Positions 373 through 57,054 of a stretch of DNA of 64,000 bases are shown one piece after another. The first letter of the stretch is position 1. Each line of letters opens with the position of its first letter. The stretch is from an uncultured Lachnospiraceae bacterium (lineage in GTDB: Bacteria > Bacillota > Clostridia > Oscillospirales > CAG-272), in NCBI GenBank assembly GCA_964653575.1, contig CAZZFP010000001.1:36600-100599 (forward strand), read 5' to 3'. The position numbers and the translations under genes are program-made. The notes under the pieces are model-generated. The model was not told where the DNA came from. It searched no databases and worked only from the letters and a program-made list of their open reading frames with translations.

Positions 373-445
373 AAAAGAAAGTATTCCCTTTACAATTCAA
401 AACCCGATAAAAAATCTTTTTTCTTCAAAAGAAAAATAATATCAG

Positions 446-518
446 AAAAGACCGTCATCGGCTCGCTTTGCGAAATTGCTCGACAAAGCCAAACCGAAAA
501 ACGGTCTTTTTTTTATTT
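446..518. terminator. bidirectional stem-loop terminator between convergent genes
   Basis: Perfect 10-bp arms AAAAGACCGT (446-455) and ACGGTCTTTT (501-510) enclose a partly self-pairing 45-nt loop. A T8 run follows on the + strand and a T4 run on the - strand. Confidence 0.5.
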
Positions 519-543
519 AAGTGCCGGTATCATATGCACCAAT

Positions 544-1557
544 TCACGGCATAAGGCACACGTCCGTAAGACGCTTGACGATTTGAGCTAACGACGCATC
601 GTCATCGCAAGACACGAGCACGGGTAAAAGCGTGATCGAGCCGTCTGAGCCTTTTTTGACGCCCGAGCGTTCAAATATTCGCGCAAGCTCGCGCTTAAGT
701 GCATCGTTGCACAGCTCATCCAATGTCCTTTTCTCAAGCTCCGCTGTACGAGATATCAATTTTTCGTCAAAGCAAGAGCTCTTGTATGCCGCGCCATATG
801 CCGAAATCTCCGTCATAATAACGAGAACCTTCATATCACATTCAAAAGCCAAATATTCCGCGGCGGTCATAGCCATATGCGAAATCAAAAGCCTTTCGCC
901 TGCCGGATCGGAAGATCTGTTAATAAATGCGACCGTTCTGTCTGCCACCCCCATACGCTTCAGTTCCGAAAGGTAAATATTCTCCTCTTCGAGCGTAATG
1001 CCCATTGCCGCAAGCACTATGGCAAATTCCGAACCGCGACATTCTTTTGAGCATTTCTCCGCTATACTCAAAGCAAGCTCTACATATGATCCTTCGGGCT
1101 GAGATGTGATCGCTACGCTCTGTCCCACGGAGAATGAATATTGCTTGCCGGATACCGAAATCTCGACTTTGGCGGTCTTGTCGGGAAGCACTTTTGATGC
1201 AGATCCGTCAACCTTGCCGTAAATTTCCGACTTGTTCTCCGAAATGATCCTCACACCTCCATCTGCCGGCTTGCCCATACCGTCAAAAATTCTGCCGAGC
1301 ATATCGCGAGACAATGACATATCAAATTTTTTGCCTTTGAAGCGCACTTTGGTCCCGGATATATCCATCCCCTCCACGCCGTCAAACACCTGCACACGCG
1401 TGCCGTTGCCGTCTGCGGATATGACGCTGCCGTATCGTACCTCTCCGTTGGGCAATAATATCTCGGCTTGCTCCCCACAGGTAACACCGTAAACCTGTTG
1501 TACAAGTATCGAAGCATCGGAGATCTGTTTTATCGTTTTGTATTCTTTGATCATCAA
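544..1557 (-). CDS. V/A-type ATPase subunit B-like protein, short and degenerate
   Basis: The N-terminal barrel (KEYKTIKQISD...GE.AEILLPNGE.RYG.V...RIFDGMGKPADGG) and the core (FAIVLAAMGIT...RSSDPAGERL...MTAAEYLAFECDMKVLVIMTEIS) parallel canonical B subunits. It is only 337 aa against about 460. The PGRRGYPGY segment and the C-terminal domain are absent. Confidence 0.8.
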   Translation of the reverse strand: MMIKEYKTIKQISDASILVQQVYGVTCGEQAEILLPNGEVRYGSVISADGNGTRVQVFDGVEGMDISGTKVRFKGKKFDMSLSRDMLGRIFDGMGKPADGGVRIISENKSEIYGKVDGSASKVLPDKTAKVEISVSGKQYSFSVGQSVAITSQPEGSYVELALSIAEKCSKECRGSEFAIVLAAMGITLEEENIYLSELKRMGVADRTVAFINRSSDPAGERLLISHMAMTAAEYLAFECDMKVLVIMTEISAYGAAYKSSCFDEKLISRTAELEKRTLDELCNDALKRELARIFERSGVKKGSDGSITLLPVLVSCDDDASLAQIVKRLTDVCLMP

Positions 1558-1602
1558 AAATTCCCCTTCAAAATGATATTCTGAATATCGCTTTCAAAAA
1601 GC

Positions 1603-2901
1603 TCAAATACGCCGCGGCTTTTCCTTATATTTTGAATACGATCTGTCCTCGTCTATTGCAAAGGAATCGAGAGTGCAAAATGTTCCGACATATCTTTTAA
1701 CCGCTTGCAATACAGGATCACCAGCGTCATCTGCCGAAACGATAGTTGTAAGTACACCGCATCTATGATCGCTTCCGATGTCAGACACACTTCCGCAACG
1801 AGATAAAAGCTCCGAGATCTGCGCGTCTATATCGGCAGGATAGAGATCAAATTCGCGGTCAAGCTCAAACGCCTTTTCACGTACCGCCTTTGCCCACTCG
1901 GTTATCGAATCGATTATCAGCAGAACAGAATAGCCCATATCTCTGTAATATTCCCCAACGGTTGCGCCGAGATATACCGCCTTTTCCCTTGCCGCCGCGC
2001 TCGTGTTGGTCATACCGGATATAATAACCGTGCGCTCGGTCAGAGCTCTGCCAAATTTGACGTCCTTCTTATCGGACAGCTCGGCAAAAAGCTCGTATAT
2101 CTCCTTGGAACGCGACGATGCGGAAACATATACAACGATATCGACATCGGCATTTTTTGCCATATTGTGCAAAAGCGACGTCCTGCCGCTTGCTCCCCGA
2201 CCCGAAATACACGCGGCACTCCCCTTCGCTATCGGAAAGTGTTTGTCGATCTCGTCTATACCTGTAATGAGCTTTTCATACGACGGACGTTTCAAAGCCT
2301 CGGAGCCTTGAGGATGAACGCCGTATCCGATCGCAAGAGTAATATCCTCGATAGTTCCATCCAACCTTTTGATCTTGCCGATCCTGTCGGAAACGCTATA
2401 ATCACCCGAGCGAAGCTCAACTATACTTCCGCTTACGCCGTACGGCACCGTGATCTTATGTATGATCAGACCGTTTTCTCTTACCGTGCCGTAAGCGTCA
2501 CCGCCATTTATTCTGTCACCGAATTTAAGCGCCGCTTCAAAATGCCATAGCTTGCTTTGATCTAAAGAGCGCCTTGATATTGACGAATGAAAAATGTCGG
2601 TGCCTTTTTTGTTACCGCAAAAGATCGGTCCTTGCAAAGCATCAAATACGTGCCCCAAAAGCCCGGGGCCGAGCTCGGCGGTAAACGGTATGTCACACGA
2701 CACTACACCGTCTCCCACGCTTATTCCTTCCGCCTCTTCAAGAAAGCACAGCGTTATATCATCTCGGTCTATCTTAACGACTTCGGCGCGCACCTGTCTG
2801 TCCCCTACGAGAACGACTCCGTGCATTTTTGCTGTTCGCGGTCCCTCGGCAACCGCTACCGAGCACGATATTTTAGTTATTCTTCCGACAGTATCTGCCA
2901 T
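1603..2901 (-). CDS. V/A-type ATPase subunit A-like protein, degenerate P-loop, C-terminally short
   Basis: Recognisable A-subunit parts: N-terminal barrel (GRITKISCSVAVAEG...AELGPGLLGHVFDALQGP), the A-specific bulge region (KLWHFEA...GD.INGGD.YG.V.ENGLI.HKI.VP) and a Walker-B-like LLIIDSITEWAKAVRE. The P-loop reads GRGASGRT (nt 2179-2202) where GxxGxGKT is expected. The segment aligned to GCGERGNE reads SASSRSKE. It is 432 aa against about 590. Confidence 0.8.
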   Translation of the reverse strand: MADTVGRITKISCSVAVAEGPRTAKMHGVVLVGDRQVRAEVVKIDRDDITLCFLEEAEGISVGDGVVSCDIPFTAELGPGLLGHVFDALQGPIFCGNKKGTDIFHSSISRRSLDQSKLWHFEAALKFGDRINGGDAYGTVRENGLIIHKITVPYGVSGSIVELRSGDYSVSDRIGKIKRLDGTIEDITLAIGYGVHPQGSEALKRPSYEKLITGIDEIDKHFPIAKGSAACISGRGASGRTSLLHNMAKNADVDIVVYVSASSRSKEIYELFAELSDKKDVKFGRALTERTVIISGMTNTSAAAREKAVYLGATVGEYYRDMGYSVLLIIDSITEWAKAVREKAFELDREFDLYPADIDAQISELLSRCGSVSDIGSDHRCGVLTTIVSADDAGDPVLQAVKRYVGTFCTLDSFAIDEDRSYSKYKEKPRRI

Positions 2902-2929
2902 CTTTGTTGCCTTTCATTAAGCCTTTGAT

Positions 2930-3592
2930 TTAACGTTGTTCGTTTTCAAACAATATATTCGCTATCTGCCCTTCGAATTCAAAGCGTAGCTCCTCGATAA
3001 GAGCCGCCAGCGAGAAATTATAATCCACACATCCGCAGTTTAATATAAGTCCGCCGCTTATATCCGCAACCTCATCTGCTATCCTTACTTTATCTATCAG
3101 CTTGCTGTCAACTCGTCCGACGACTCTCCGGCGCAAACCGTCAATAAGAAGTCCTCCATATCGGTCTTTATCTGACTTATTAAGGTATACACGGTAAACG
3201 CCATGTTCGTCATCGTCGTCAATTATATTCAAGCGCTCTGTATGCTCTATCATCGCCTTTGATAACATCGAAACCAACATCTCAAGATATTTTTCGTGCG
3301 GAAACATCAATATATCTTTTTCGGCTCGCTCAAATGCTTCGTCAACAGCCGACACCCTCGCTTTTTGAATTATCAATGTCCTATTGATGCTCGCGGTTGA
3401 TTTTGCATATTCTATTATATTCGCACATTTTTCCGCACAAGCCGCGGCGATCTCCGAGGATTCCGTTGACACTCGATCGTTATATTCACCATAAATGCGC
3501 CCGCATTCGTTATCGGCAGCTTCGGATATCTGCTTTGCCTTTTCTTCGGCGGCTTCTATTATTTTAGATATTATCCTATCAAGTCCGGTCAT
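2930..3592 (-). CDS. V/A-type ATPase subunit E-like peripheral-stalk protein
   Basis: The N-terminal coiled coil MTGLDRIISKIIEAAEEKAKQISEAAD and the C-terminal globular part (ISGGLILNCG.VDYNFS...LIEELR.E...IANILF) match the subunit E pattern. 220 aa. Confidence 0.75.
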   Translation of the reverse strand: MTGLDRIISKIIEAAEEKAKQISEAADNECGRIYGEYNDRVSTESSEIAAACAEKCANIIEYAKSTASINRTLIIQKARVSAVDEAFERAEKDILMFPHEKYLEMLVSMLSKAMIEHTERLNIIDDDDEHGVYRVYLNKSDKDRYGGLLIDGLRRRVVGRVDSKLIDKVRIADEVADISGGLILNCGCVDYNFSLAALIEELRFEFEGQIANILFENEQR

Positions 3593-3609
3593 ATGTTACT
3601 CCTTATTTT

Positions 3610-4746
3610 TCATTCCTCGGTGTAGAGCTCCGATGGAGTCACGGGAATAAATTCTTTTCCGCTTTGAGAATACACCTCTTTTAGTGAATTTTGGGGCTGT
3701 GCCTTGATGTACTTCAGCAATTCATTATCGTGCTTTTTTGCAAATTTACTGTTCTTGACTATAGTATAGCTCTTATCGGGATTTGAAAATTCGTAAGCAC
3801 ATCCGTTACTGTCCAATATCTCGTTTATCTTATCGATACAAAATGCGGGAATGACAGCTTCGATATATGCGCTCGTCTCTCCGATCGGTACTCCTCGACT
3901 TATCTCAAGGCATATCTCAAGCGTCGCAATATGATCGTAAAAAAGCTTGATATTGTCCAAGTCTTTCGAAAGGTATGCAAGCCGCTCCTCTTTTCGTATA
4001 CGTTCACCTTCAATAGTTATAAGACGCTTGCGAGCGGCACTCAACGCCACGTTTGCCCTCAGATCAATATTGTCATAATCTTTTATCTTAAATTCATACT
4101 CGGATAGGAGATCAAGCACTTCATCGCAAGACTCCCTGTGTGCTATAAGGCGGACGTAATAAACGGATGTGTCCCAGCTTATGGGCTGAATACAAGCGCA
4201 TAAATCGTTTAGCTTCTGAATAATCTCCTCAATATCAAAAGCTACGGGGATGGATCCGAAGAAAAAGCAAGTGCTTTCCGTCCCCTTAAAAGAAAGCGGC
4301 TCACTGTAGCTTTCCCACGGCAAAAGACGCTCAATATCAGACTCGAGCCGAGAGGTCTCGGCTGTCAAATCCTCAAGTGCTTTAGAAAGCTTGAGGGTCT
4401 CGTTGATCGTGTTACACGTACGAAGGATCTGATCGTCAGATAAGAAAAGAACCGTTTGACGCTTTATCCTCGACGTTGCAACCTTTTTTGACGGTTGTAT
4501 CGAATTATCGGAATATTCCGAGAGTATCCGAATCGACGTCGTGATCTCGGATAAAGATATATTTGAATGATGTGTTGCCTCATAAAACTCTTTTAAGTAA
4601 TCATAAAGCACGGGGGGATTTCTATCCGTGATCGGATCGGATCGCTTAAATTCAACACAGCCGGAAGAAATCAGCGAAAAAATAACTCGTTCGGCGTTTT
4701 CAAGCTCGGTAACCGCGAAAAGCTTTTTAAAGATCTCTATTGACAT
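3610..4746 (-). CDS. V-type ATPase subunit I/a N-terminal-domain-like protein without membrane domain
   Basis: The start AKMSIEIFKKLFAVTELENAERVIFSLISSGCVEFKR resembles the characteristic opening of subunit I (..KM.K......E......L...G.VE). It has long coiled-coil segments and no hydrophobic transmembrane stretch in about 380 aa. The start is either 4764 or, more likely, Met at 4746, overlapping the upstream gene. Confidence 0.55.
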   Translation of the reverse strand: MSIEIFKKLFAVTELENAERVIFSLISSGCVEFKRSDPITDRNPPVLYDYLKEFYEATHHSNISLSEITTSIRILSEYSDNSIQPSKKVATSRIKRQTVLFLSDDQILRTCNTINETLKLSKALEDLTAETSRLESDIERLLPWESYSEPLSFKGTESTCFFFGSIPVAFDIEEIIQKLNDLCACIQPISWDTSVYYVRLIAHRESCDEVLDLLSEYEFKIKDYDNIDLRANVALSAARKRLITIEGERIRKEERLAYLSKDLDNIKLFYDHIATLEICLEISRGVPIGETSAYIEAVIPAFCIDKINEILDSNGCAYEFSNPDKSYTIVKNSKFAKKHDNELLKYIKAQPQNSLKEVYSQSGKEFIPVTPSELYTEE

Positions 4747-5066
4747 TTTTGCATAAGCTCCCATACGATTTCTTTAACCGCTGTACGCATATTGGCTTCT
4801 GCGGAATTGGTAATAGCTTCCGCTTCGGCACGTGCTTCACTATCACTTTTTCTGACGGTCTCCGCGGACCTGTCGGTTATATTTTCCGTCTCAATACGAT
4901 ATTTTTCACGGCACTCGGAAAGTGCTGTTTGATATTTATTGCAAGCGTCAATTCTCGCTTCTTCAACCGCTCTGTGCGCCCTGTCTTCCGCGCTATCAAT
5001 AATGCTATGAGCTCTCGCTTCCGCGTCCCGAATCTTTAAAAGTGCATTATCCGACAAATTATTCAC
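4737..5066 (-). CDS. V/A-type ATPase subunit G/H-like coiled-coil protein
   Basis: 109 aa. ALLKIRDAEARAHSIIDSAEDRAHRAVEEARIDA is a typical Glu/Ala/Arg-rich stalk coiled coil. It is the first gene of the operon. The start codon is GTG at 5066 or TTG three codons downstream. Confidence 0.6.
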   Translation of the reverse strand: MNNLSDNALLKIRDAEARAHSIIDSAEDRAHRAVEEARIDACNKYQTALSECREKYRIETENITDRSAETVRKSDSEARAEAEAITNSAEANMRTAVKEIVWELMQKCQ

Positions 5067-5112
5067 CGCCTTAGATTAACAATAAGCTTAAATCATATAC
5101 TTTCTTTTATTA

Positions 5113-5141
5113 ATTATATCATATACGCATCGACAATTCAA
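5113..5141 (-). promoter_or_regulatory. sigma-A-type promoter of the V1-like operon
   Basis: On the minus strand: TTGAAT (5141-5136), a 17-nt spacer, then TATAAT (5118-5113). It lies about 45 nt upstream of the first gene. Confidence 0.55.
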
Positions 5142-5219
5142 GAGCTCAAATGCGAAAAATAAGCGCATAACCTCATTTTGAGTTATATTCACAAGATTTT
5201 TTGCCACTGAAAAAGATCA

Positions 5220-5780
5220 TTAATCGATACACAGCTTTCCGAGAAGACGATTTTTACCGTTTTCATATGCGTATAGCTCGTCTCGCTTTATAAACCATTC
5301 TCCACGCCGCCTTAAATAGTTATATATTTCTCTTTTGCGCTTTTTATCAGCTTCACAAAGCATATCGATCAAATGATATTGCGGCAGTACGAAGCGTTTG
5401 TCTTTTATTGAATACAGATAGGTATGACGTATCTTTTGTGTGGACCAATCCTTACGGTTTGTTGCAAATTCGGTAAAAATATCAACATAAAATATCGATT
5501 CGGATACGCTCTTCTCTTTTATTGAAAAGCTGTATTTTGCGCGCAAGCCCGTACGATTATCGGGTAACGAGAGCAGCTGATCCTTGAGCTTGCTTTTTGC
5601 ATATTCGAGTACCTTATCTTTGATCAGCTCTGCGGTACCGCTTACACTGTTAAGCGGATACTCTATCCTGACTCTTATAAGATCACATCCATTATGCCTT
5701 ATACCAAAGGACTCAAGAATATTTTTTTCGTCACCGACATTTGCTTCACTCAGAACGGCGTTTTCGACTTTTTTTGCCAC
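5220..5780 (-). CDS. hypothetical protein
   Basis: Intact ORF. The best start is GTG at 5780, preceded by GGAGG with 8-nt spacing. The listed 5849 start is a TTG inside promoter-like sequence. No family recognised. Confidence 0.5.
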   Translation of the reverse strand: MAKKVENAVLSEANVGDEKNILESFGIRHNGCDLIRVRIEYPLNSVSGTAELIKDKVLEYAKSKLKDQLLSLPDNRTGLRAKYSFSIKEKSVSESIFYVDIFTEFATNRKDWSTQKIRHTYLYSIKDKRFVLPQYHLIDMLCEADKKRKREIYNYLRRRGEWFIKRDELYAYENGKNRLLGKLCID

Positions 5781-5865
5781 AGCATTATCCTCCGTTTTTA
5801 TTATCAATGTATGAGATATTACTTTGCAAAATAACAATTGTCGCGTCAAAATATTAAGTCAAAAA

Positions 5866-5897
5866 TAAGGACCCCCGCCGAGGCGGAAGCCCTTATC
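5866..5897 (-). terminator. rho-independent terminator of the lipoprotein gene
   Basis: On the minus strand: AAGGGCTTCCGCC-TCG-GCGGGGGTCCTT followed by ATTTTTG. Confidence 0.65.
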
Positions 5898-5951
5898 TTA
5901 TTTGATTAGCTTAGCTATAACTAAAACTACTTAGTTAGCAGAAAGTCAATT

Positions 5952-8141
5952 TTAATTGCCAGCTACGGTTGCTGCTTGTGCTACGTTTGCCTTAGCAACT
6001 GTAAGAGCATCGCTCATAACCTTAGCAATAGCCGTATCCTTAACAGTGTCGGTTTCGTACTCAGCTACGTCAGCCTCTGCTGTAGGAATATCTTTGAGGA
6101 TCTCTTCGAACTCAGCTACGAGAACAACGAAATGCTCCTTAGCCTGTGCATCAGCCTCAGTTGCCTTATCAGCGTACGTAAATGCTCCACCGCTAAACTT
6201 CATCTCTTTGATTGCGGAGATGTATGCAAGAACTATGTTCTTAGCAGCATCCTTTGCTCTCTGAGTTGCAGGAACTACAGTAAGTTTACCGTCGATGTAC
6301 TGAGCAGTGAGCTTAGCAATCGCATTGATAGCGTTCAACTTGTAAGTCTCATAATTGTCGTTCGTGTCAACAACAGCCTTAACTTCGTTGTAGCAATCAA
6401 GAATTACCTGCTTAGCAAAGTCTTCTGTAGCCTTCTCGTCTACATAAGCCTTGAGCAGTGCATTCAGTTCGCTCTGGATAGCTTCGGAGGTCTTATCCTT
6501 ACCGTTATCATCCTTAGTAGGTATCGTACTCTTGAGCTTAGCAACCTGCTGGAGGTAGTAAACGAAGCCGTTTACATCATAGTCAACATATGATGTAGCT
6601 GTCTTGTTTGCATTTACGACCAAGTCAAGATGCTTTATAGCATAATTCCACTTATCGTTGAGATTGTCACCGGCATACTCGTTGTTTGTATCTGCCTGAT
6701 AGAATGCGTTCTTCCAAGCAAGCTCTGCCTCCATTACATCAGCGAAGAGAGTACCGAGCTTTGTGATCTGTGCCTTGTAAGCTTCATTATCAGTAGCCAG
6801 GCTCTGCATTGCATTAAGAACAGACTTGATAGCCTCTGTCTTGAGCGTATTGTAGTTATCCTCATAAGCAACCTCAAGCCACTTTTCAAGGACGGGAGCG
6901 AAGTAAACAACATACTCATCATCAGCAGTCTTGGAAACGCCGTTGTTCTTATATTGCTTGTCAATAGCCTTAACGCCGTCCTTGTCAGCTGTCTTGACTT
7001 CCTTAAGCTCTACCTCAGTGGGTTCGTACTTTGTACCAACAAAAGTTACATAATCAGTGTAGAGATCCTTAAGTTCAGTAAGTCTGGAAGCATAAATCTT
7101 CTTAACAACATCATCGCTCAGAGCCTTTGCGAGGTTTATAGCGTCAGCCTGTGCCTGGGATACAGCAGCAGTTGTAACTTTTCCGTTAGCATCCTTCACT
7201 TCATCTACTTTTTTCTGGAATGTGATACCAAGAGCCGTAAAAGCAGTCTCTATATAGTCGCGGATATCATCATTGACATCTTTGCATTCAGCCTCAAGAG
7301 CTGCTTTCTTCTCGACTGCATACTCAAGTTTACCAACGGAAATACCCTTAGCGGTTGCCTGAGCCTGAACCGTTGCATATGTTGTGCACCACTCATCATA
7401 AGCCTTCTTTGCAGCTGTGATCGCATCTGCATCAAGTGTGGTAACAGGGAAGCTGATCGCATCAATAAGTGCTGCAACCTTCTTAGCCTCGGAATCAGCC
7501 GTAGCTATTCCGTTAAGTTCTGCCTCTATGTCAGCAACAATGCTGTCAAGATCATCATCACTTACAGCTCTGTAAAGTCTGATCTTTGCTGCGTAGCAGA
7601 GGTTAAGAGCTTTCTCGTAGTCCTCTTCAGTGTAGTACTCTTTCTCTCCGAGAATCTTCTTCTCAAGAGCATCGATATCTATGCACTTTGCAATGATCTT
7701 CTCGGTTGCGTTCTTCCAAGCTTCGATATCGATCTTGCTGTTAGCAAGGTCTTTGAGCTCTGTAGCCTGGCTTGTAAGTGTGGAGCTTACGTTGGCAATA
7801 GCTGTGTCAACGAGCTTCTTTGCAACTGCTTCAACATCAGATGTCTTTGCATAGTCTGCAAGAGCGGTCTGAATGTCAGTTGTCTTAGCGTAACCTGCAA
7901 GTGCAGCCTCTATCTTAGCCGCAACTGTTTCCTCGGACACGCCTGCCTCGAGATCTTTAAGCGCGTTTTCAACAGCTGTTGTGAGCTGCTGCTGTGTAAC
8001 AGCGGCATCTGCTGCCTTCTTAGCTGCTTCTGCAGCATCGCGTGCTTCCTGGTCTGTACAACCAACAAGGCACATAGCGAGAACTGTAACAAGAGCAAGA
8101 ATTAAAGCTATGTTTCTTTTTGTTTTGTTTAAGTTAAGCAT
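5952..8141 (-). CDS. large alpha-helical Ala/Lys/Glu-rich surface lipoprotein
   Basis: The signal peptide carries a lipobox (ALILALVTVLAMCLVGC). About 700 aa of low-complexity helical sequence follow, with a local tandem motif LAGYAKTTDIQTA/LADYAKTSDVEAV. GAGGAGG lies 5-6 nt before the ATG at 8141. Confidence 0.75.
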   Translation of the reverse strand: MLNLNKTKRNIALILALVTVLAMCLVGCTDQEARDAAEAAKKAADAAVTQQQLTTAVENALKDLEAGVSEETVAAKIEAALAGYAKTTDIQTALADYAKTSDVEAVAKKLVDTAIANVSSTLTSQATELKDLANSKIDIEAWKNATEKIIAKCIDIDALEKKILGEKEYYTEEDYEKALNLCYAAKIRLYRAVSDDDLDSIVADIEAELNGIATADSEAKKVAALIDAISFPVTTLDADAITAAKKAYDEWCTTYATVQAQATAKGISVGKLEYAVEKKAALEAECKDVNDDIRDYIETAFTALGITFQKKVDEVKDANGKVTTAAVSQAQADAINLAKALSDDVVKKIYASRLTELKDLYTDYVTFVGTKYEPTEVELKEVKTADKDGVKAIDKQYKNNGVSKTADDEYVVYFAPVLEKWLEVAYEDNYNTLKTEAIKSVLNAMQSLATDNEAYKAQITKLGTLFADVMEAELAWKNAFYQADTNNEYAGDNLNDKWNYAIKHLDLVVNANKTATSYVDYDVNGFVYYLQQVAKLKSTIPTKDDNGKDKTSEAIQSELNALLKAYVDEKATEDFAKQVILDCYNEVKAVVDTNDNYETYKLNAINAIAKLTAQYIDGKLTVVPATQRAKDAAKNIVLAYISAIKEMKFSGGAFTYADKATEADAQAKEHFVVLVAEFEEILKDIPTAEADVAEYETDTVKDTAIAKVMSDALTVAKANVAQAATVAGN

Positions 8142-8455
8142 TTTTTGCCTCCTCAATAAGATTTGTGTTACTATTGTACACTATTTTCTTTTGTTTTTCC
8201 ATACTTTTGTATGAACGGGTCATATTTGATACGAATGGGACGACTTTTCTCGATTATTTATGTAACAAGCGTCTCCGTACCGGACCGCAGTTCCTTTTGC
8301 TGTCCTTTTGGTGTCTTTTCGTCAGCAGAGAACGTTGTCGGTCTTAAAAATCAGCCCGCCAGACTTTAAGGCACCTATTATTGCCACCGCACTGTCTTAA
8401 GTTCCAAACAAGCCAATACCGTGGCAGGATATTGTCTGTCGGTCAAGCCCTCCTT

Positions 8456-9163
8456 TCAAACATTCCCCACAAATTCCTCGAATTTTGCCTTAGCCTCGGC
8501 ATATCGATTCTTTGCTATGATTACCTTGTCGCCGTTTTTCATGGTAAATGCGTATTTGTCCATCTTTGAAACAAACTCCATATTCACAATGAAGCTACGG
8601 TGCGAGCGATAGAAACGCACGTCCCCGAGCTGCTCGAACACGTCGGTCAATGATCCGACACAGGTCTTCACATCTCCCGCGCAATGCACATCGAGTTCCG
8701 TCCTGAACACCTCTATGTACCAAATCTGCGATATATTCACAGGAACCTTTTCGCCTTCTTTTGTTTTTAATACAATAGCCGGCTGTCTTTGGTACTTCTC
8801 GGTGATATGGCGGAATACGCCGCGCATCTTCTTCTTGGTTGGCGGTTTAAGAACATATCCCGCCGGGTAGGCACCGTAGGCTTCAAGTGCGTACTCCGCA
8901 GAGGATGTGTTAAAAACGATCTCTCCCGCATATCCTATCTGCCTTACCATACGAGCAAACTCCACACCGTTCACTCCCGCAACCGAGGTCTCGAGTATCA
9001 AAAGCTGATATTCTTCGCTCTGGATCGCTTTGTAAAGAGATTTGAAGCTGCGAAAGACGTCAACTGCTGTCTCAAGCGAGATCTCTTTGGCAAGCTCTTT
9101 TATGCAACCGGAAAGCTCCGCGGAGCCCGTCTCGGAATCGTCGCAAACAGCTATTCTGAACAT
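8456..9163 (-). CDS. LytTR-family response regulator, atypical receiver (Glu at acceptor position)
   Basis: The receiver domain has CDD, IVFNTSS and YVLKP motifs. The C-terminal LytTR-like domain reads (I.YIEV.....VH......C.GSL......L....F.R.HRSFIVN). The acceptor position reads LLILETS, with Glu58 at nt 8990-8992. Confidence 0.8.
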   Translation of the reverse strand: MFRIAVCDDSETGSAELSGCIKELAKEISLETAVDVFRSFKSLYKAIQSEEYQLLILETSVAGVNGVEFARMVRQIGYAGEIVFNTSSAEYALEAYGAYPAGYVLKPPTKKKMRGVFRHITEKYQRQPAIVLKTKEGEKVPVNISQIWYIEVFRTELDVHCAGDVKTCVGSLTDVFEQLGDVRFYRSHRSFIVNMEFVSKMDKYAFTMKNGDKVIIAKNRYAEAKAKFEEFVGNV

Positions 9164-9368
9164 TCTTACATCTCCGATACGTATTTCGTTCTATTCGCGC
9201 ATATTATATCACATAGCGAGCAATTATGCAATGTACAAAATGCACAAAATTGCATTTTTAGGCATACCATATAATCCCATATGCGGTTTTTTTAGGCTGA
9301 TTTTGTGTTTTTTTACAAAATTCTCGGTATTTTTATGCTTTATTGGCGATATTGCCAAGAGAAGCCGA

Positions 9369-11222
9369 TCAATATGCGCGAATCTCGTACACCGTAATCT
9401 TATCCGCTCCGTTGGTTGACAGGATATGTATCTCGGCGGTATCACACTCGGTAGGTTCGAAATCAAGGACGTTCTGCCTTTGATGATTGCCCTTTACCTC
9501 TATCTCGCGTACGATCTCGCCGTCTTTAACGAGCTTAACGGTATAGTCCTTTACGAGCTCTGCGGGAACGCCTATTCTCTGCTGACCCTGACGATTTGCC
9601 GACATCGTGACTCTGATAGGATATCTGAAGTCGGAATCAAACGTAAGTCTGAGCTGTTTGAGCGTTTTTGTTCCCTCAAGCTTCATTGTAATGGTCTCGC
9701 CGTTCTCGGAGATGCCGTCAGACACCCAAGCATTGAGATCTGCGCCGAGCTTTCTCGAAATTCCGTTTACGACGTTTGCGGGCTCTCCGCCCATGATATG
9801 CGAAGAAGCGGTAAACGATGCGCTCCTTGCCATATCCTTTTCATCCTCATTTTTAAAGCCGGGAAGGAAGCAGTCATCCTTCATAAGAATCTGCTGAAGT
9901 TCGCCGACGTGGGGCGCAAGCTCTCTCGGGTCGCAATCATACTTCTTGCAAAGTGCCGCCGCGGTACCTACTGCCTGACCGCCGATAGCGCAGCAGGCGA
10001 TTATTCTCGTGCTGGCAAGTCCGAGCTTTGTTGTGCTTATGTCTCTGCCCGCCATAAAGAGGTTATCTATATTTTTGGAGTAATATGAACGATAAGGGAT
10101 CGTATAAACGCCGAGGAAGTGATGACAATCGCTCGGAAGGACATCAAAATCAAGGAGTCCGTGAGGTGCGTGAAGGTCGATGCACCAACCGCCGTACGCC
10201 ACGGCATCATCAAATATCTTATGATCGAGAATATCGCTCTCACTGAGGACGTAATCACCCATAAGTCTGCGGCTCTCTCTCATACCCGGAAGTGCGCCGA
10301 CCCACTCGAGCGTATAGTTTTCCGCGCCGTGGTCTCCGCCGTTCTTAATATGATCCCAAATGCCGTATGCGTATGCCATAAGGTCGTCTCTTATGGTTTC
10401 AAAATCGGGGATGATATCGTCACCGTCTCCCATAAGCTCGAGCCACCAATAACCGTAATCGACTGCGGCACAGCTGAATGCGGAGAGTCTGAGCCATTCC
10501 TGCGGGTCGGGTGCCATACTTGAATCGACTTTCATAGTCTTTGAGTGCACTCTGTACCTGAGCTGTTCCTCGGTCAGATGCTTTGCGAAAGAAGGCGGAG
10601 TGAATTTAACGGGATGACCGACGTTTACGGCCTTCATAAGGATGGTGTTACCCATTCTCTCGTTATTGGGCTTTTCCGGAGCGTGCGGCTCGCCCGTCTG
10701 CGCCTGCGACTCGCTTCCCTGCCTGTACTCTGCGCCTGCGTAATATCCGAGCGTACCGTTACCCGTTGCATCGACAAAAATATCGGCATTGAATTTGTAA
10801 CGCATTTCCGTCGTTTCCTGGAAGCAGTTTATGGAGGTAATACGGTTTCCGTCCGTCTCGCAATCGTACATAGAGGTATTTAAATATAATGTAAGATTTT
10901 TTTCCTCCTTTGCCTTTTGATGGAGGACCATATCCCAGATCGAATAGTTAAAGAAATCGTTTTGACTTTTGTTTTCAAGCATAAGCTCATAGAGAAGTCC
11001 CGTTTCTTCATAATCGGGTTGTTTCAAGCTTTGGCAAGCTCCCGAGATATGTATTCTTATCTCACTCGACGCATTTCCGCCAAGGACAGGTCTTGCGTGA
11101 ACGAGCGCGGTCTTAGCTCCGTGTCTTGCCGCGGAGATTGCCGCACACAAGCCGGACATTCCGCCGCCGACTACCAAGACTTCATACGATTCTTCTCTGA
11201 ATCTTTCCTGAACTCTTTTCAT
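9369..11222 (-). CDS. FAD-dependent oxidoreductase (PF12831-like) with C-terminal beta-rich domain
   Basis: Dinucleotide-binding motif YEVLVVGGGMSGLCAAISAARHGAKTALV. The family is often linked to glycan use. The start is probably the ATG at 11222; the listed start at 11258 is TTG. Confidence 0.75.
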   Translation of the reverse strand: MKRVQERFREESYEVLVVGGGMSGLCAAISAARHGAKTALVHARPVLGGNASSEIRIHISGACQSLKQPDYEETGLLYELMLENKSQNDFFNYSIWDMVLHQKAKEEKNLTLYLNTSMYDCETDGNRITSINCFQETTEMRYKFNADIFVDATGNGTLGYYAGAEYRQGSESQAQTGEPHAPEKPNNERMGNTILMKAVNVGHPVKFTPPSFAKHLTEEQLRYRVHSKTMKVDSSMAPDPQEWLRLSAFSCAAVDYGYWWLELMGDGDDIIPDFETIRDDLMAYAYGIWDHIKNGGDHGAENYTLEWVGALPGMRESRRLMGDYVLSESDILDHKIFDDAVAYGGWCIDLHAPHGLLDFDVLPSDCHHFLGVYTIPYRSYYSKNIDNLFMAGRDISTTKLGLASTRIIACCAIGGQAVGTAAALCKKYDCDPRELAPHVGELQQILMKDDCFLPGFKNEDEKDMARSASFTASSHIMGGEPANVVNGISRKLGADLNAWVSDGISENGETITMKLEGTKTLKQLRLTFDSDFRYPIRVTMSANRQGQQRIGVPAELVKDYTVKLVKDGEIVREIEVKGNHQRQNVLDFEPTECDTAEIHILSTNGADKITVYEIRAY

Positions 11223-11343
11223 ATCTATCTTATTTCCTTTCACGGTTTTTGCACACAATTATGCGTTGTACTGATTATATCACAAATTCAATAATAAATC
11301 AACATTTTTTCGGTAAAAAAGAAAAAGCGGACAAATGCAAACA

Positions 11344-12950: not shown

Positions 12951-13889
12951 TTACTGACCCTGCGTCTTGTTTTTTACGAATATAACCGCAGATTTCGGGT
13001 TTTGAGGATCCTCAACAATCTTTTTACTGTCAAAGAGGTCGAGACTCGTAATAAAGGTTATCATCTTTGAAAATCCGTAGTTTCGCTGATCAAAATCCGG
13101 ATAACGCTTCCTGAGTACGTTTCCGACGTCGCTTAAAAGTATCCATCCGTCGTCATCATCCTCCGCAAGCTCATCGGCTATCATAACAATTGCGTTTTTG
13201 ATGGTATCGATATCGGTAACGGAGGTTTCGTCATCGTCCAGTGAAACACCGGCAATAAGATCGTTGACAGCGTCAGATACCGTAATATGTGCCTGAGCAT
13301 CCACCGCAGGCTTGGAGCCGGTTTTCTTTTCGGTCTTTTGACGAGCCTTCTCGCTTTTTTCCGCTTTTTCGTTCTTCGTATTTTTATCGTTTCTTTCGAC
13401 TTTACCCGATCTTTCGGAAGGCGAATTTTTCTCGGACGCTTTCAGTATCTTATCAATGTAGATAAAACGATCACACGCCGAAACGAACGGACGCGGAGTT
13501 TTTTGCTCACCCATACCTATGACAGTCATTCCCGACTCACGGAGTCTTGAAGAAAGCCTTGTAAAGTCACTGTCGGACGAGGCGATGCAAAAACCATCGA
13601 CCTTCCCCGAATAAAGTATATCCATCGCGTCTATTATCATTGCCGAATCCGTAGCGTTTTTTCCTACCGTATAGCTATATTGCTGCATAGGCGTTACGGA
13701 ATGTTCCAAAAGCACCTGTTTCCAAGGAGCGAGAGTCGGAGAGGTCCAATCGCCGTATATTCTTTTATATGTTGCGACACCCTCCTTAGATATCTCGTCA
13801 AGTATTATTTTTATATATTTTGAACCGATATTGTCGGCATCTATCAGTATTGCAAATTTGAGATCGTTACCGCTTTTTGACATACGCAT
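12951..13889 (-). CDS. NYN/LabA-like nuclease domain protein with C-terminal OST-HTH (LOTUS) domain
   Basis: The N-terminus reads FAILIDADN...YGDW....L..W........P.QQ.....GKNATDSAMIIDAMD....GKVDGFCIASSDSDFT.L..RLRE.G..V.G.G, the LabA/NYN signature. A Lys/Glu-rich linker follows. The C-terminus (GWILLSDVGN.LRKRYPDFDQRNYGF.KM..F) fits an OST-HTH domain. Confidence 0.8.
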   Translation of the reverse strand: MRMSKSGNDLKFAILIDADNIGSKYIKIILDEISKEGVATYKRIYGDWTSPTLAPWKQVLLEHSVTPMQQYSYTVGKNATDSAMIIDAMDILYSGKVDGFCIASSDSDFTRLSSRLRESGMTVIGMGEQKTPRPFVSACDRFIYIDKILKASEKNSPSERSGKVERNDKNTKNEKAEKSEKARQKTEKKTGSKPAVDAQAHITVSDAVNDLIAGVSLDDDETSVTDIDTIKNAIVMIADELAEDDDDGWILLSDVGNVLRKRYPDFDQRNYGFSKMITFITSLDLFDSKKIVEDPQNPKSAVIFVKNKTQGQ

Positions 13890-26452: not shown

Positions 26453-27679
26453 ATGGCAAAATCAAACTATTTAACAACCATTGCAATCGATACAGAGCGT
26501 TCCACTTTCCACTTCTACTCCATGCCGGGCAGTGACAGCTCCACCATTATCCATAGTATTAAAAATTACGGCGGCGGTCATTTTGACGATGAATTTTTCG
26601 GCAAATTCAAAGACGCCGTCGCCGATTTCGTGGCAGAAAACCCTGCCGACGGTGTGCGGAAAGTGTCGGTCATTCTGCCGGATACCGCCGTGCTGACCGA
26701 TACGGTGAAAATCCCCACTATGCGTGGCTTCGGTCAGACAAAAAAGGCGCTGGATATCACCTTGGGCGGACTGTATCGCAATTATGCCGATTTGCAGATC
26801 GCTTCCCGTGTAGCGGCTCAAAACAAGCAATATGCCACCTATGCCATCACGGCGGTGCAAAAACGAATTGCAACGGCGATCTACGCCGCTTGTTCGGAAA
26901 ACAAACTGTTGGTAGACACCCTGACCTTTGCATCCAACGCTACCGTCGGCGGCGCGACGATCATCAATCCGAAGCTGAAAAACGCGTCCTATCTGCTGCT
27001 TGATCTGAAAGATACCTACGCACGCTTCACTTTCGTGGCTGACGGAAAAGCTGTCGGATATTATATTTTACCATTCGGGTTGGAATTTTTGCGCAAACCG
27101 AAAGTGACACGGGAAGATATGCTGTTCGACCATTCCTATGCTGAACTTTCGGTGCTGAACGCCAGAGAAAAAGCCAAATCCAAGCGGCTGACCGTCATGG
27201 CGATGGAATCCGTTTCCGAGGATGAACAGGATGCCGAGCCTGCGGAAGATGAACAGGTGGAAACCGACGAAACCGCACAAGAAGAAACTACGGAAGAAAC
27301 CGCGGAAAATACGATCATACAGTCCTCGCTGAAGATGTTTACACACAAAGCACGGCGTTTGCCGAAATTTATGCAGAGAGAAATCCCCGAAACCGATGAA
27401 GGCATCCTTTACGAGAATTTTCGTGTGTTCGTCAAGTGGGCGCTGACTTTGATCGCATCCAACGAAAAACTGACAGATATCGCCAAGCCGAAGTTTGTAT
27501 GCGTGAATATGCCGCAGGAGCTTGCCTCTGTTTTGGATGCCGTGAACGAAGAAAGCGAGGAAAACGGTATCTCCTTTACCGCATTGCCGATTTCAGATTA
27601 TGACAGCAATGTGACTGCCAATCTGGAACTGTACGGCGGTTTGTTCCCCAAGCAATTGGCGGCGAACGGAAAGTTCTGA
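26453..27679 (+). CDS. PilM-like (actin-fold) pilus assembly protein with acidic insertion
   Basis: IAIDTERSTF, VSVILPDTAVLTDTVKIPTM and LLLDLKDTYARFTFVADGK resemble the PilM phosphate-1, secretion-motif and phosphate-2 regions. An acidic low-complexity stretch is present (SEDEQDAEPAEDEQVETDETAQEETTEETAE). No TM helix. Confidence 0.45.
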   Translation: MAKSNYLTTIAIDTERSTFHFYSMPGSDSSTIIHSIKNYGGGHFDDEFFGKFKDAVADFVAENPADGVRKVSVILPDTAVLTDTVKIPTMRGFGQTKKALDITLGGLYRNYADLQIASRVAAQNKQYATYAITAVQKRIATAIYAACSENKLLVDTLTFASNATVGGATIINPKLKNASYLLLDLKDTYARFTFVADGKAVGYYILPFGLEFLRKPKVTREDMLFDHSYAELSVLNAREKAKSKRLTVMAMESVSEDEQDAEPAEDEQVETDETAQEETTEETAENTIIQSSLKMFTHKARRLPKFMQREIPETDEGILYENFRVFVKWALTLIASNEKLTDIAKPKFVCVNMPQELASVLDAVNEESEENGISFTALPISDYDSNVTANLELYGGLFPKQLAANGKF

Positions 27680-27689
27680 GGAAGTTCCG

Positions 27690-28478
27690 ATGGATCAATA
27701 TTACACGATTGTTTCGTATATCCTCATGGGAATCATTGGTCTGTGTGTGGGCAGTTTCTTGAATGTGGTCATCTACCGTCTTCCGGAGGGGATGAGCCTT
27801 ACAAAGCCCAATTCTCACTGCCCCAAGTGCAAGTATGAACTGCGTTGGTATGACAATATCCCCGTGCTTTCCTATCTGATGCTGGGGGGCAGATGCAGAA
27901 AATGCAAAAACCACATTTCTTTCCGCTACACAGCAGTGGAAATTGCCAATACGGTGCTGTGGCTGTTGTGCGGATTTCTCTTTCGGGAGAAAAGCATTCC
28001 GCTCGCCTGTATTTATATGGCGGTTTGCTCTGTTTTTATTTGCATATTTTTCATCGATCTGGAACATCAGATCATTTTTGACCGTTTTCAGATTATGCTA
28101 CTGTGCCTTGGCATTGCCAGCATCTTCTTTGACGACAGTTACGGTTGGCTGTCCCATGTGATCGGTGGCGTGGTCGGCTTCGGCGTGTTTTACCTCATCG
28201 GATGGAGTTTTGAAAAGCTCTGCAAAAAAGAGGGTTTGGGCGGCGGTGACATCAAATTGGCAGGTACCGTCGGACTTTTGCTCGGTTGGGAAAAACTGCT
28301 GCTGTCGCTGCTGGTTGCAACCATCCCTGCGGCGATCATCATGTTAATTGCCAAAAAGAGAAACGAAAATGAAAGCAAGCCCTATCCCTTTGCGCCGTTT
28401 TTGGTGTCGGGATTTACGGTAGCAATGTTTTTCGGCGAGCAGATCATTACATGGTATCTGGCTCTGCTTGGATTTTGA
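27690..28478 (+). CDS. pilD: prepilin peptidase (A24 family)
   Basis: Zinc-ribbon CPKCKYEL.WYDNIPV.SY....G.CR.CK..IS.RY, a polytopic membrane domain, and the GGGDIKL catalytic Asp motif. Confidence 0.9.
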   Translation: MDQYYTIVSYILMGIIGLCVGSFLNVVIYRLPEGMSLTKPNSHCPKCKYELRWYDNIPVLSYLMLGGRCRKCKNHISFRYTAVEIANTVLWLLCGFLFREKSIPLACIYMAVCSVFICIFFIDLEHQIIFDRFQIMLLCLGIASIFFDDSYGWLSHVIGGVVGFGVFYLIGWSFEKLCKKEGLGGGDIKLAGTVGLLLGWEKLLLSLLVATIPAAIIMLIAKKRNENESKPYPFAPFLVSGFTVAMFFGEQIITWYLALLGF

Positions 28479-28495
28479 GAAAGTGAGGTGGTTTT

Positions 28496-29707
28496 GTGCC
28501 TACATACAAATATGTTGCGGTTAATTTGGAAAAGAAAAAGCACAAAGGTATTTTCATTGCCGAGGACGAAAAAGATCTGGCAGTGCAACTGACCAAGCAG
28601 AATCTGTATTTGGTGTCCGCAAGGGAATACAAGGCAGGAACACCCTCGGCTTTCTTTACCCTCGGTACAGGTAAGGTGAATTTGTCGGAATTGACGACTT
28701 TTTGCCGTCAGTTTGCCATTATGATCTCTACGGGAGTTATATTGATCGATTGCATAGACTGCTTAAAACAACAACCGTATTCCGCTTATTTTAAATCCAT
28801 TTTGCGGGTTATCAGCGAGGATGTGAAAGGCGGTGCTATACTGTCCGAGGCGCTGGAAAAGCACAAGAAGGTCTTTCCCAATTTCTTTTGCAGTATGGTC
28901 AGAGTAGGTGAACTCAGCGGTAAGCTGGACAGTGTGTTTGTGTCCCTTGCCGACTACTATGAATCGGATGCGGCGATCAAGAGAAAAGTCAAGAGTGCCT
29001 TGGCGTATCCGATGATGCTGGCAGGCATGACCGTCGGCATCGTGATTCTGATGTTGGCGTTTATTGTTCCCACATTCCGAGATACGCTATCGACGTTGCA
29101 GGTAGAGCCTGAGGGTATTACTCTTGTCATATACAATATTTCGGATTTTATTTTGAACTACTGGTCGATTCTGGTATTAACGGTTATTTTCGTTGGCGGC
29201 GGACTGTTCCTATTTTTGAGAACGCGGACCGGCAAAAAGGTTTTTGATGTATTTAAAATCAAGTGTCCGCTCATCGGTCGTGTGCAGGTCAATCTCATAA
29301 CTGCTCGATTTGCCAGAGCGTTCAGCCTGCTTCTGTCCGGCGGTATGGATCTGGCTACGGCATTGGATAATGTTTTGATTATTTTGGACAACAGTTATGT
29401 GGAAGCGAAATTCAAAGAGGCGGCAGAGGATGTGCGGCATGGTGTAACGCTGACCAATGCCTTCCAAAAGCAAAATCTTTTTCCTCAAATGCTGTTACAG
29501 ATGCTCTCTATTGGCGAAAAAACGGCATCATTGGAAGAAGTACTGACCCGTTCGTGCAGATTTTTCGACGAACAGGTGGAATCTTCTCTGAATTCGGTAA
29601 CTTCAAAAATTCAGCCGATCATGCTACTGATCATGGGTGTGGTCGTGGGAACGCTGTTCATTGCGGTCTACTCGCCGATGCTTTCCATTATGAACAACCT
29701 TACATGA
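28496..29707 (+). CDS. pilC: type II secretion system F-family platform protein (PilC/ComGB)
   Basis: Two GspF repeats and three TM segments. 403 aa. GAGGTGG RBS before a GTG start. Confidence 0.85.
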   Translation: MPTYKYVAVNLEKKKHKGIFIAEDEKDLAVQLTKQNLYLVSAREYKAGTPSAFFTLGTGKVNLSELTTFCRQFAIMISTGVILIDCIDCLKQQPYSAYFKSILRVISEDVKGGAILSEALEKHKKVFPNFFCSMVRVGELSGKLDSVFVSLADYYESDAAIKRKVKSALAYPMMLAGMTVGIVILMLAFIVPTFRDTLSTLQVEPEGITLVIYNISDFILNYWSILVLTVIFVGGGLFLFLRTRTGKKVFDVFKIKCPLIGRVQVNLITARFARAFSLLLSGGMDLATALDNVLIILDNSYVEAKFKEAAEDVRHGVTLTNAFQKQNLFPQMLLQMLSIGEKTASLEEVLTRSCRFFDEQVESSLNSVTSKIQPIMLLIMGVVVGTLFIAVYSPMLSIMNNLT

Positions 29708-29722
29708 TCGGGGAGGTAGCGC

Positions 29723-33047: not shown

Positions 33048-33842
33048 TTACTTTGTGGGATATCCGCTTGCCGTAACGTACCAGGCAGCATATGATCCCG
33101 TAGGAGCTTCAACAAGCGCAACAACGCTGTCCTCGCTCTCCTGTAAGCTTCCAAATGCAAACTCACCGATAGCTTCTATATTTTCGGTAAGCTTAACACT
33201 TGCGAGCTTACTGCAAGCCCAAAATACCTGCTTACCCAAAATCTTTACTTTTGAGGGGATCTCAACGGATGTAATACCTGTGCAGCCCCAGAAAGCATAA
33301 TCGCCGATGTTTTCGAGCGATTTGGGAAGTTCAAGAGTGCTTATCGACGTACAGCCATAGAAGGCGCCGTCACCGATCGAGGTAACGGTTGAAGGAAGCG
33401 GAAAGCTTGCAAGCTTTGCACAGTAAGCAAAAGCATATTTGCCTACTTCCGTAACTGTCTCCGGAACCTTTACCGATGTAAGAAGCTTGCAGCTTGCAAA
33501 GGCATAATCGCCTATTGACTTAACCGTATCGGGAAGTTCAACCGAAGTTATCGAATTGTTGCCGTAGAAAGCCTTTTCTCCGATAGCGACTACCTCTCTG
33601 TCGTCAATCATATCGGGTACCTTTACTTCGTGAAGGCCGTATGAGATATCATCTCCCGTATAACCTGTAATAATCGCCGTATCGCCTGCTCCGATCTCGT
33701 ACGTAAAATCGGTCATCTCGGCAACACTACCGGTCTCGTCTTCATTGCCCTGATCTGTGTCATCACCTTTATCGTCTTTGTTACAAGAAAGCAAAGTAAA
33801 AATCATCATAGCCGCAAGAATAAGGGCTAAAAACTTTTTCAT
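33048..33842 (-). CDS. BspA-type leucine-rich-repeat (LRR_5) lipoprotein
   Basis: MKKFLALILAAMMIFTLLSC is a lipobox signal. Repeated units of the form I.IG.YAF..C..LTSV.LP..V..IG..AF follow. Confidence 0.8.
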   Translation of the reverse strand: MKKFLALILAAMMIFTLLSCNKDDKGDDTDQGNEDETGSVAEMTDFTYEIGAGDTAIITGYTGDDISYGLHEVKVPDMIDDREVVAIGEKAFYGNNSITSVELPDTVKSIGDYAFASCKLLTSVKVPETVTEVGKYAFAYCAKLASFPLPSTVTSIGDGAFYGCTSISTLELPKSLENIGDYAFWGCTGITSVEIPSKVKILGKQVFWACSKLASVKLTENIEAIGEFAFGSLQESEDSVVALVEAPTGSYAAWYVTASGYPTK

Positions 33843-34023
33843 AATTAACCTCCGAAAAGTATTGATACTGCAAATTGATCGCAATAATTCATTGTTACCT
33901 ATATATTATACTTATTTATTGCTCGATTGTCAATAGGATACTTATCGTCTATTGTTAATAATTTGCAAAATAATCACAATTATGCCGAATTTATCAGTGC
34001 ACTTTGGATTTTGTTGCCGAATA

Positions 34024-57038: not shown

Positions 57039-57054
57039 AATTCTCCTCCGAACA

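Follow-up and report, generated by a model that had tools for sequence, protein, structure and literature searches.

A five-gene relative of the V/A-type ATPase operon, devoid of rotor genes, is encoded in a 64,000-nucleotide stretch of DNA from an uncultured Lachnospiraceae bacterium (assembly GCA_964653575.1, contig CAZZFP010000001.1, positions 36,600 to 100,599 of the forward strand); the whole 64 kb stretch is referred to below as the window. Its genes code for homologues of the peripheral-stalk subunits G/H (G') and E (E'), of subunit I (also called a; I') stripped of its membrane domain, and of the head subunits A and B (A' and B'), both shortened at the C-terminus. We consider it probable that the reduction of a complete operon, in place, left a static, non-catalytic I'-EG-B'-A' stator complex serving a structural or scaffolding role.

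The subunit identities (A, B, E, G and a), first proposed from the letters of the DNA alone, are confirmed by profile searches, alignments and the comparison of predicted structures. In NCBIfam profile searches, A' matched positions 3-439 of 588 of the V-type A model NF003220 (E 8e-98) and B' matched positions 1-312 of 462 of the V-type B model NF003235 (E 1e-70); since each protein lacks a third of its length, neither score reaches the curated cut-off. Among structures of the PDB, A' aligned with residues 5-419 of 588 of the Pyrococcus A subunit (3qia_A, E 1.5e-82), and B' with residues 8-318 of 465 of the Enterococcus hirae B subunit (3vr2_D, E 3.3e-57). E' passes the cut-off of Pfam PF01991 (31.8 bits vs 24.2 bits); the profile matches are weak for G' (AhaH TIGR02926, E 5.6e-6; PF03179, E 5.7e-4) as well as for I' (Pfam/NCBIfam). 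The assignments are unambiguous against the complete operon of a related metagenome-assembled genome (MAG; locus L011), which was used as the canonical reference. The identity to its subunits amounts to 34% for G' (against the first gene, coding for 109 amino acids (aa); E 4e-12), 32% for I' (against residues 1-343; E 1e-49), 41% for E' over the whole length (E 2e-55), 45% for A' (E 2e-118), and 40% for B' (E 3e-74). E' and G' are colinear with the canonical E and G along their full length.

The sequence-only reading took I' for a plain N-terminal domain of the a/I subunit; the alignment revealed an in-frame internal deletion with the C-terminal tail kept. Canonical I residues ~344-620 are absent, and the protein resumes with a counterpart of the last ~20 residues of canonical I (624-643), reading YSQSGKEFIPVTPSELYTEE against YEDGGREFKPSMPSEKYTME. 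Since I' matches residues 1-343 and the last 20 residues of canonical I, the eight-helix membrane domain was excised in frame. The AlphaFold (AF2) model of I', based on an alignment of 96 sequences (predicted local distance difference test, pLDDT, 91.9; predicted template modelling score, pTM, 0.86), features two alpha/beta lobes linked by long helices, and the tail is predicted to form short beta bridges (pLDDT 82-94). Foldseek matches of this model in the PDB are solely V-ATPase a/I subunits and the related eukaryotic V-ATPase subunit C, with the subunit a of Thermus thermophilus (6r0z_N, 6qum_N) and the I N-terminal domain 3rrk at the top. The maximum 19-residue hydropathy of a close I' relative, P0136, is 1.65.

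A side observation concerns the Lys-rich helix KNSKFAKKHDNELLKYIKAQ of I' (residues ~337-356; window 3610-3700), which is nearly invariant in the family and replaces the interfacial segment preceding the first transmembrane helix of canonical I. With a hydrophobic moment (muH) of 0.41-0.48 and a net charge of +2 to +4, this helix has just moderate amphipathicity, which speaks neither for nor against peripheral attachment to the membrane.

The head subunits have been shortened and altered as well. A' retains the beta-barrel, the non-homologous "bulge" region and the nucleotide-binding domain, and stops where the C-terminal helical domain would begin; the last residues of B' correspond to the final strand of its nucleotide-binding domain. 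In the window, the Walker A motif of A' reads GRGASGRT, with Arg in place of Lys, and SASSRS stands where canonical A has the catalytic GCGERG, the catalytic Glu being gone. In B', a longer insert, specific to the family, takes the place of the Arg-finger segment RKEVPGRRGYPGY. None of the seven lineages of the reduced family retains the catalytic Glu or the Arg-finger motif, and in L002, L006 and L007 Walker A is destroyed as well (GKKAGDSS, EKNTGDLS).

No tblastn match to canonical K, C, F or D was found anywhere in the window, no ATP-synthase gene is present among 40 other open reading frames (ORFs) of it according to the Pfam annotation, and K, C, D and F genes are absent from every related reduced locus. 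Overall, alignments and tblastn bear out the composition initially suggested: G, a membrane-less I, E, C-terminally truncated and degenerate A and B, and no rotor or membrane genes in the window. Since K, C, D, F, the I membrane domain, the A and B C-terminal domains, the catalytic Glu and the Arg finger are all missing, rotation, ion transport and rotary catalysis are impossible.

The A' homologues fall into seven clusters at 90% identity, which are 100, 91, 71, 67, 55, 51 and 51% identical to the window protein; the next matches are full-length A subunits of 589 aa (45% identity). All retrievable relatives of the window locus share the G-I'-E-A'-B' gene order. Upstream, the reduced loci are flanked by a LytTR regulator, a lipoprotein of ~730 aa and a gene of ~186 aa; downstream, they are followed by Mbeg1-like, HAMP-HisKA and response-regulator genes. 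The same flanks recur at L001, L002, L006, L007, L008 and L012. The closest full-length A, P0017 from a Clostridia MAG (L011), sits in a complete G-I-K-E-C-F-A-B-D operon with a homologue of this lipoprotein upstream and the same three genes downstream. Owing to these shared flanks, the reduced operon is a positional orthologue of a normal ntp operon, and the sequence evidence places its origin in an in-place descent from a canonical clostridial V/A-type ATPase operon. The idea that the locus is a paralogous extra copy is thereby ruled out: it occupies the exact site of the complete operon in a relative, with the same flanks.

The transition involved at least five deletions, namely of the I membrane domain, of K, of C together with F, of the A C-terminal domain, and of the B C-terminal domain plus D. 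It was also considered initially that K, D, F and C genes in relatives would point to a recent local deletion. Such genes do occur, in L011, but the deletion is old rather than recent, because it is shared by all reduced lineages, at a synonymous divergence (dS) of up to about 2.

Several features of the flanking DNA deserve mention in their own right. The lipoprotein upstream of the operon (5952-8156, minus strand; 734 aa, alpha-helical, lipobox LVGC) is hypervariable between strains (58-72% nucleotide identity vs 93-98% in the flanks), and it matched no family among the Pfam and NCBIfam profiles; the homologue preceding the complete ntp operon in L011 is 33% identical to it. The 186-aa gene X (5220-5780, minus strand) is conserved directly upstream of every reduced operon and has no Pfam, NCBIfam or PADLOC match. 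It shows no similarity to the 215-aa gene located at the same position by the canonical operon and was not counted as a member of the system. The region 382-9200 of the window is a mosaic: it shares 86-100% identity with L001 over positions 9200-5120 and 89-95% with L008 over positions 5119-1576, from the promoter through A', and the B' stretch 1575-976 resembles neither. The V-like operon seems to behave as a cassette that homologous recombination exchanges, one breakpoint being located at the promoter.

The five genes are maintained under purifying selection and are not decaying. The ratios of nonsynonymous to synonymous substitutions (dN/dS), calculated pairwise by the Nei-Gojobori method, were 0.06-0.16 for G', 0.09-0.27 for E' (0.09-0.15 in closer pairs), 0.20-0.26 for I', 0.18-0.24 for A' and 0.17-0.35 for B'. 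For the concatenation of the five genes, dN/dS was 0.20-0.23, with bootstrap 95% intervals within 0.12-0.31, and it was the same at dS = 0.04 and at dS = 1.06. It was likewise unchanged in the lineages with a destroyed Walker A (L002, L006, L007). About 4.4% of all possible single-base changes would introduce a stop, so ~198 stops are expected in the five genes per neutral substitution per site; no stops or frameshifts were found in these genes across the seven lineages. Both promoter hexamers are kept in six of the six reduced lineages, whereas the adjoining intergenic DNA has diverged, and the ribosome-binding site of G' (AAGGCGG) and its TTG start are equally conserved in all six. On these grounds, a decaying operon or a set of pseudogenes was ruled out, as the sequence-only reading had argued from the intactness of the ORFs.

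Constraint is not distributed evenly within the operon. E and G are the most constrained of the five genes, which agrees with the early impression that the stalk proteins are the best conserved (dN/dS 0.09-0.15 vs 0.17-0.35 for A, B and I), and they are best conserved at both ends. In A', the exterior bulge (residues 121-180) is 78-79% identical to that of canonical A, vs 21-28% around the lost catalytic Glu and in the region after Walker B. The latter region and the new B' insert at the homologous place are nonetheless well conserved within the reduced family. Between the same pairs of genomes, the products of flanking genes are 81-97% identical, vs 40-55% for the V-like proteins.

Membrane-less I proteins are encountered outside the clade of the window as well. 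The search of 1.84 billion representative proteins with the I' profile yielded one close representative followed by canonical I subunits of ~650 aa; examination of the top 150 matches revealed at least eight further membrane-less I proteins (P0137, P0179, P0180, P0198, P0215, P0242, P0243, P0274). These eight consist of the soluble arm plus an F-x-P...K/E-Y tail, and their deletion junctions differ. Their nearest relatives are full-length I proteins, a different one in each case, and not one another: P0179 shares 47% identity with P0182, P0274 47% with P0207, P0243 38% with P0266, and P0215 36% with P0157, with ~23-28% identity to the window family. A few other I-like proteins (P0158, P0212, P0223) are simply truncated and have no tail. 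No relative of the I' family or of the P0180/P0198 family was found by I' alignment scans in 185,579 species genomes.

The order G, I' and directly E, with no K, was documented for P0179 (L014), P0137 (L016), P0180 (L015) and a P0198-like protein (L017). In L015 and L017, tblastn and translation revealed an A-like gene directly after E, hence C and F are also absent there. The view of these two loci as G-I'-E modules without A/B was rejected for the same reason, one minus-strand gene call being spurious. The A-like P-loop of L017 is intact (GAPGSGKS). The membrane-less I of this locus (L017 2051-3183) is split by an internal stop into parts of 64 and 306 aa, which is either a sequencing error or a sign of a decaying copy; the cluster representative P0198 is intact.

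Thus, the reduction looks recurrent and not unique to the clade of the window. The tail of I lies between the membrane domain and K, so its retention needs two separate deletions, which argues that the tail has been selected. It is conceivable, although we would stop short of calling it probable, that V/A-ATPase operons of uncultured Clostridia repeatedly and independently became rotor-less, membrane-less, catalytically silent stator assemblies kept by selection and composed of G, the I arm with its C-terminal tail, E, A and B. The other lineages are documented by contigs of 1.6-4.6 kb; the neighbour-joining tree carries no resampling support, and independent origins rest mainly on the pairwise identities and the differing junctions.

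The literature on the parent enzyme describes two EG stalks that are attached by their N-terminal ends to the two lobes of the I soluble arm and whose globular heads contact B at the top of A3B3 (PMC7367684, PMC3293630, PMC6131620). It follows from these contacts that the retained parts correspond to one connected chain of stator contacts. This chain consists of the I soluble arm, the E/G stalks, B, which holds the E/G head at its top, and A, which still has its exterior bulge; gone are all rotating parts, all membrane parts and the domains with which A and B grip the rotor. The five genes would be co-transcribed from the conserved promoter, and I', the EG stalks and the A'B' head would presumably assemble into a static complex unable to rotate, to translocate ions or to hydrolyse ATP by the rotary mechanism. 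Such a complex would presumably be retained to serve as a structure or scaffold, outside bioenergetics, either in the cytoplasm or at the surface of the membrane.

A number of observations weigh against this interpretation. Walker A is intact in L001, L010 and L017 and the Walker B Asp is kept throughout, which may allow some members of the family to go on binding nucleotides. Neighbouring genes display dN/dS of 0.02-0.09, i.e., the constraint on the V-like genes is 3-5 times weaker, and the divergence has been fast: A' is 45% identical to canonical A, vs 81-89% among the canonical A subunits of related MAGs. The structural support comes from a single-chain prediction, and expression and assembly of the five proteins are deduced from the genes. 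No partner gene or phenotype pointing to a role was found, and the search for K, C, F and D covered 64 kb, so an interacting second ATPase may reside elsewhere in the genome.

The last possibility is related to a rival explanation, according to which the complex is a regulator, an assembly factor or a decoy for a second, complete V- or F-type ATPase, acting, e.g., by titrating its stalk or head subunits. Many Clostridia carry more than one rotary ATPase, and no stalk-binding surface has been lost, whether on the two ends of E and G, on the N-terminal part of B or on the lobes of I. Still, we regard this explanation as unlikely: the operon is no duplicate, its site being orthologous to that of the canonical one, the window offers no ATP-synthase gene as a partner, and at 32-45% identity to canonical subunits mixed assemblies become less likely. 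Slightly less credence is given to a non-rotary nucleotide machine or sensor, in which the A'B' ring, held by the EG/I' frame, would bind or slowly hydrolyse ATP while acting on another substrate or reporting the energy state. Such a ring is plausible insofar as isolated canonical A3B3 rings are stable entities (PDB matches; see also PMC2775895), and the GxxxxGK[TS] motif of three lineages and the ubiquitous Walker B Asp would suit it. However, the catalytic Glu is replaced in every one of the seven members, the B Arg-finger motif has given way to an unrelated conserved insert, and in the lineages where Walker A is destroyed, as well as with Lys replaced by Arg in the window, dN/dS stays the same.

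The remaining two explanations are contradicted by the data. The locus might be a non-functional relic, that is, a dead pump whose soluble genes have not yet decayed and whose membrane parts were eliminated owing to the harm done by an uncoupled channel. The relaxation of constraint relative to the neighbouring genes, the eroded catalytic motifs with a drifting Walker A, the internal stop in the I' of the distant locus L017 and the few tail-less truncations would all fit this picture, which is nevertheless improbable: dN/dS remains at ~0.2, with intervals far below 1, at shallow and deep divergence alike; not one of the ~200 stops expected per neutral substitution per site has materialized; the promoter and the ribosome-binding site persist while the flanking intergenic DNA diverges; and the I tail is repeatedly kept in frame at the cost of two separate deletions. 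Even harder to credit is a pump that obtains its rotor and membrane subunits in trans, from genes at a different locus, since A' and B' have no C-terminal domains, I' has no transmembrane helix and the catalytic residues are lost.

Among the known systems, the static stator complex proposed here is closest to the canonical V/A-type ATPase (ntp/atpV; e.g., of Enterococcus hirae and Thermus thermophilus), with which the locus shares the G/H, I(a), E, A and B homologues, the gene order and the orthologous site. It differs from this enzyme in having no K ring, C(d), D, F, I membrane domain, A/B C-terminal domains, catalytic Glu or Arg finger. The putative complex hence derives from the V/A-ATPase family, as judged by the A/B homology and the E/G stalks with the I soluble arm, and it fails four of the defining functional features of this family; absent are the catalytic site, D/F/C(d) with the K ring, and the eight-helix membrane domain of I.

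Nanoarchaeum equitans keeps subunits A, B, D, a and c and has no stalk subunits, a subset roughly complementary to that of the window locus. Its A-type ATP synthase has a reduced subunit set, and the core is thought to be non-functional as a synthase (PMC6349945). The chains 5bn3_A and 5bn3_B of its A3B3 core (PDB 5BN3-5BN5) are among the sequence matches of A' and B', respectively; unlike A' and B', the A and B of N. equitans keep their C-terminal domains (the solved chains have 570 and 416 residues). The F1-like ATPase of Mycoplasma mobile gliding is a rotary head repurposed for a non-bioenergetic role (10.1101/2024.06.11.597861). It is derived from F1 alpha/beta, is catalytically active and has been proposed to generate force, whereas the window locus represents a V-type stator with catalysis lost; A' scores 79 bits with the MMOB1660 model, the cut-off of which is 600 bits. 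In the FliH-FliI-FliJ system, a ring ATPase of the same superfamily is held by a stalk-like subunit related to the peripheral-stalk proteins (PMC3665681). FliI is an active homo-hexamer with a D-like central FliJ, in contrast to the window locus, where no FliJ/D-like gene is present, and the A' matches to FliI/SctN models (1e-34, far below the cut-offs) are inferior to that with V-type A (1e-98). Membership in the Mycoplasma F1-like (MMOB1660/1670, MSC_0618) or FliI/SctN groups was rejected, with scores of 45-118 bits vs cut-offs of 380-850 bits, every one of them much poorer than the matches to the V-type A and B models. Anti-phage defence models of PADLOC gave no match save one at chance level (E 0.009). 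None of the nearest precedents is a stator-only, catalytically silent derivative, and full-text literature searches returned no description of such an operon, in line with the initial remark that no described system of this composition was known.

Rotary ATPases are textbook machines whose parts make sense only together. In the locus described here, a stator appears to have survived for long without rotor, membrane sector or catalysis, apparently more than once. If the assembly is functional, the E/G stalks, the soluble arm of I/a and the exterior of the A3B3 head have a moonlighting role in bacteria that has escaped recognition, and the locus offers a natural minimal system for the study of stator assembly. 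If the recurrent conversion is true, the function of the V-ATPase stator is selectable without rotation, ion transport and ATP turnover, and a new class of rotary-ATPase-derived pseudo-enzyme complexes has to be acknowledged. A functional assembly would also carry a practical warning: genome annotation as "V-type ATP synthase subunit A/B/E" followed by metabolic reconstruction would wrongly credit these organisms with an ion pump.

The organization of the locus is summarized in Table 1. The five tightly packed co-directional genes occupy positions 544-5057 of the minus strand, with a promoter at one end and a strong hairpin at the other. The ORF list and a promoter scan confirmed the five minus-strand ORFs, the intergenic gaps of 45, 28 and 17 nucleotides, the single overlap (G with I) and the promoter, as originally reported; TTGAAT-17-TATAAT ranks first of the 14 promoter-like sites in the region. 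Gene starts were refined by alignment with relatives. While the places of the ORFs stood, two of the protein lengths were corrected: G' from 109 aa and B' from 337 aa. The alternative GTG start of G' at 5066, given by the ORF lister, falls within the ribosome-binding site; an alternative start of I' at 4764 would give 384 aa. The hairpin after B' has a folding energy of -39.5 kcal/mol (z = -5.09; none of 200 shuffles folds as well).

Table 1. Elements of the reduced V/A-type ATPase operon and their positions in the window.
Element	Positions	Strand	Details
Promoter, sigma-70-type	5113..5141	-	-35 TTGAAT 5141-5136, 17-nucleotide spacer, TG-extended -10 TATAAT 5118-5113
G/H-like peripheral-stalk subunit (G')	4737..5057	-	106 aa, TTG start 5057
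I' (subunit I/a-like, membrane-less)	3610..4746	-	378 aa
E-like peripheral-stalk subunit, full length (E')	2930..3592	-	220 aa
A' (A-subunit homologue, no C-terminal helical domain)	1603..2901	-	432 aa
B' (B-subunit homologue, no C-terminal domain)	544..1554	-	336 aa, ATG start 1554
Terminator-like long hairpin	446..510	-	U-rich tract 445-425 after the hairpin, downstream of B'

The remaining annotated genes of the window are ordinary, coding for methionyl-tRNA synthetase (MetRS), HPr kinase, RecG, GAPDH, type IV pilus components, ABC transporters and two-component systems. The MetRS is about 75% identical to its counterparts from MAGs of Clostridia (Ruminococcaceae-Oscillospiraceae). The type IV pilus or type II secretion system (T2SS)-like set (26453-31411, plus strand; 33048-33884, minus strand) includes an A24 prepilin peptidase, a T2SSF platform protein and a T2SSE ATPase, with a gene for a BspA-type leucine-rich-repeat protein nearby. 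On the minus strand, the window also harbours a gene for a protein combining an NYN nuclease with OST-HTH/LOTUS and two genes for PF12831 FAD-dependent oxidoreductases (12951-13889, 9369-11258 and 55716-57188); the first of the oxidoreductase genes and the NYN gene are syntenic with L012.

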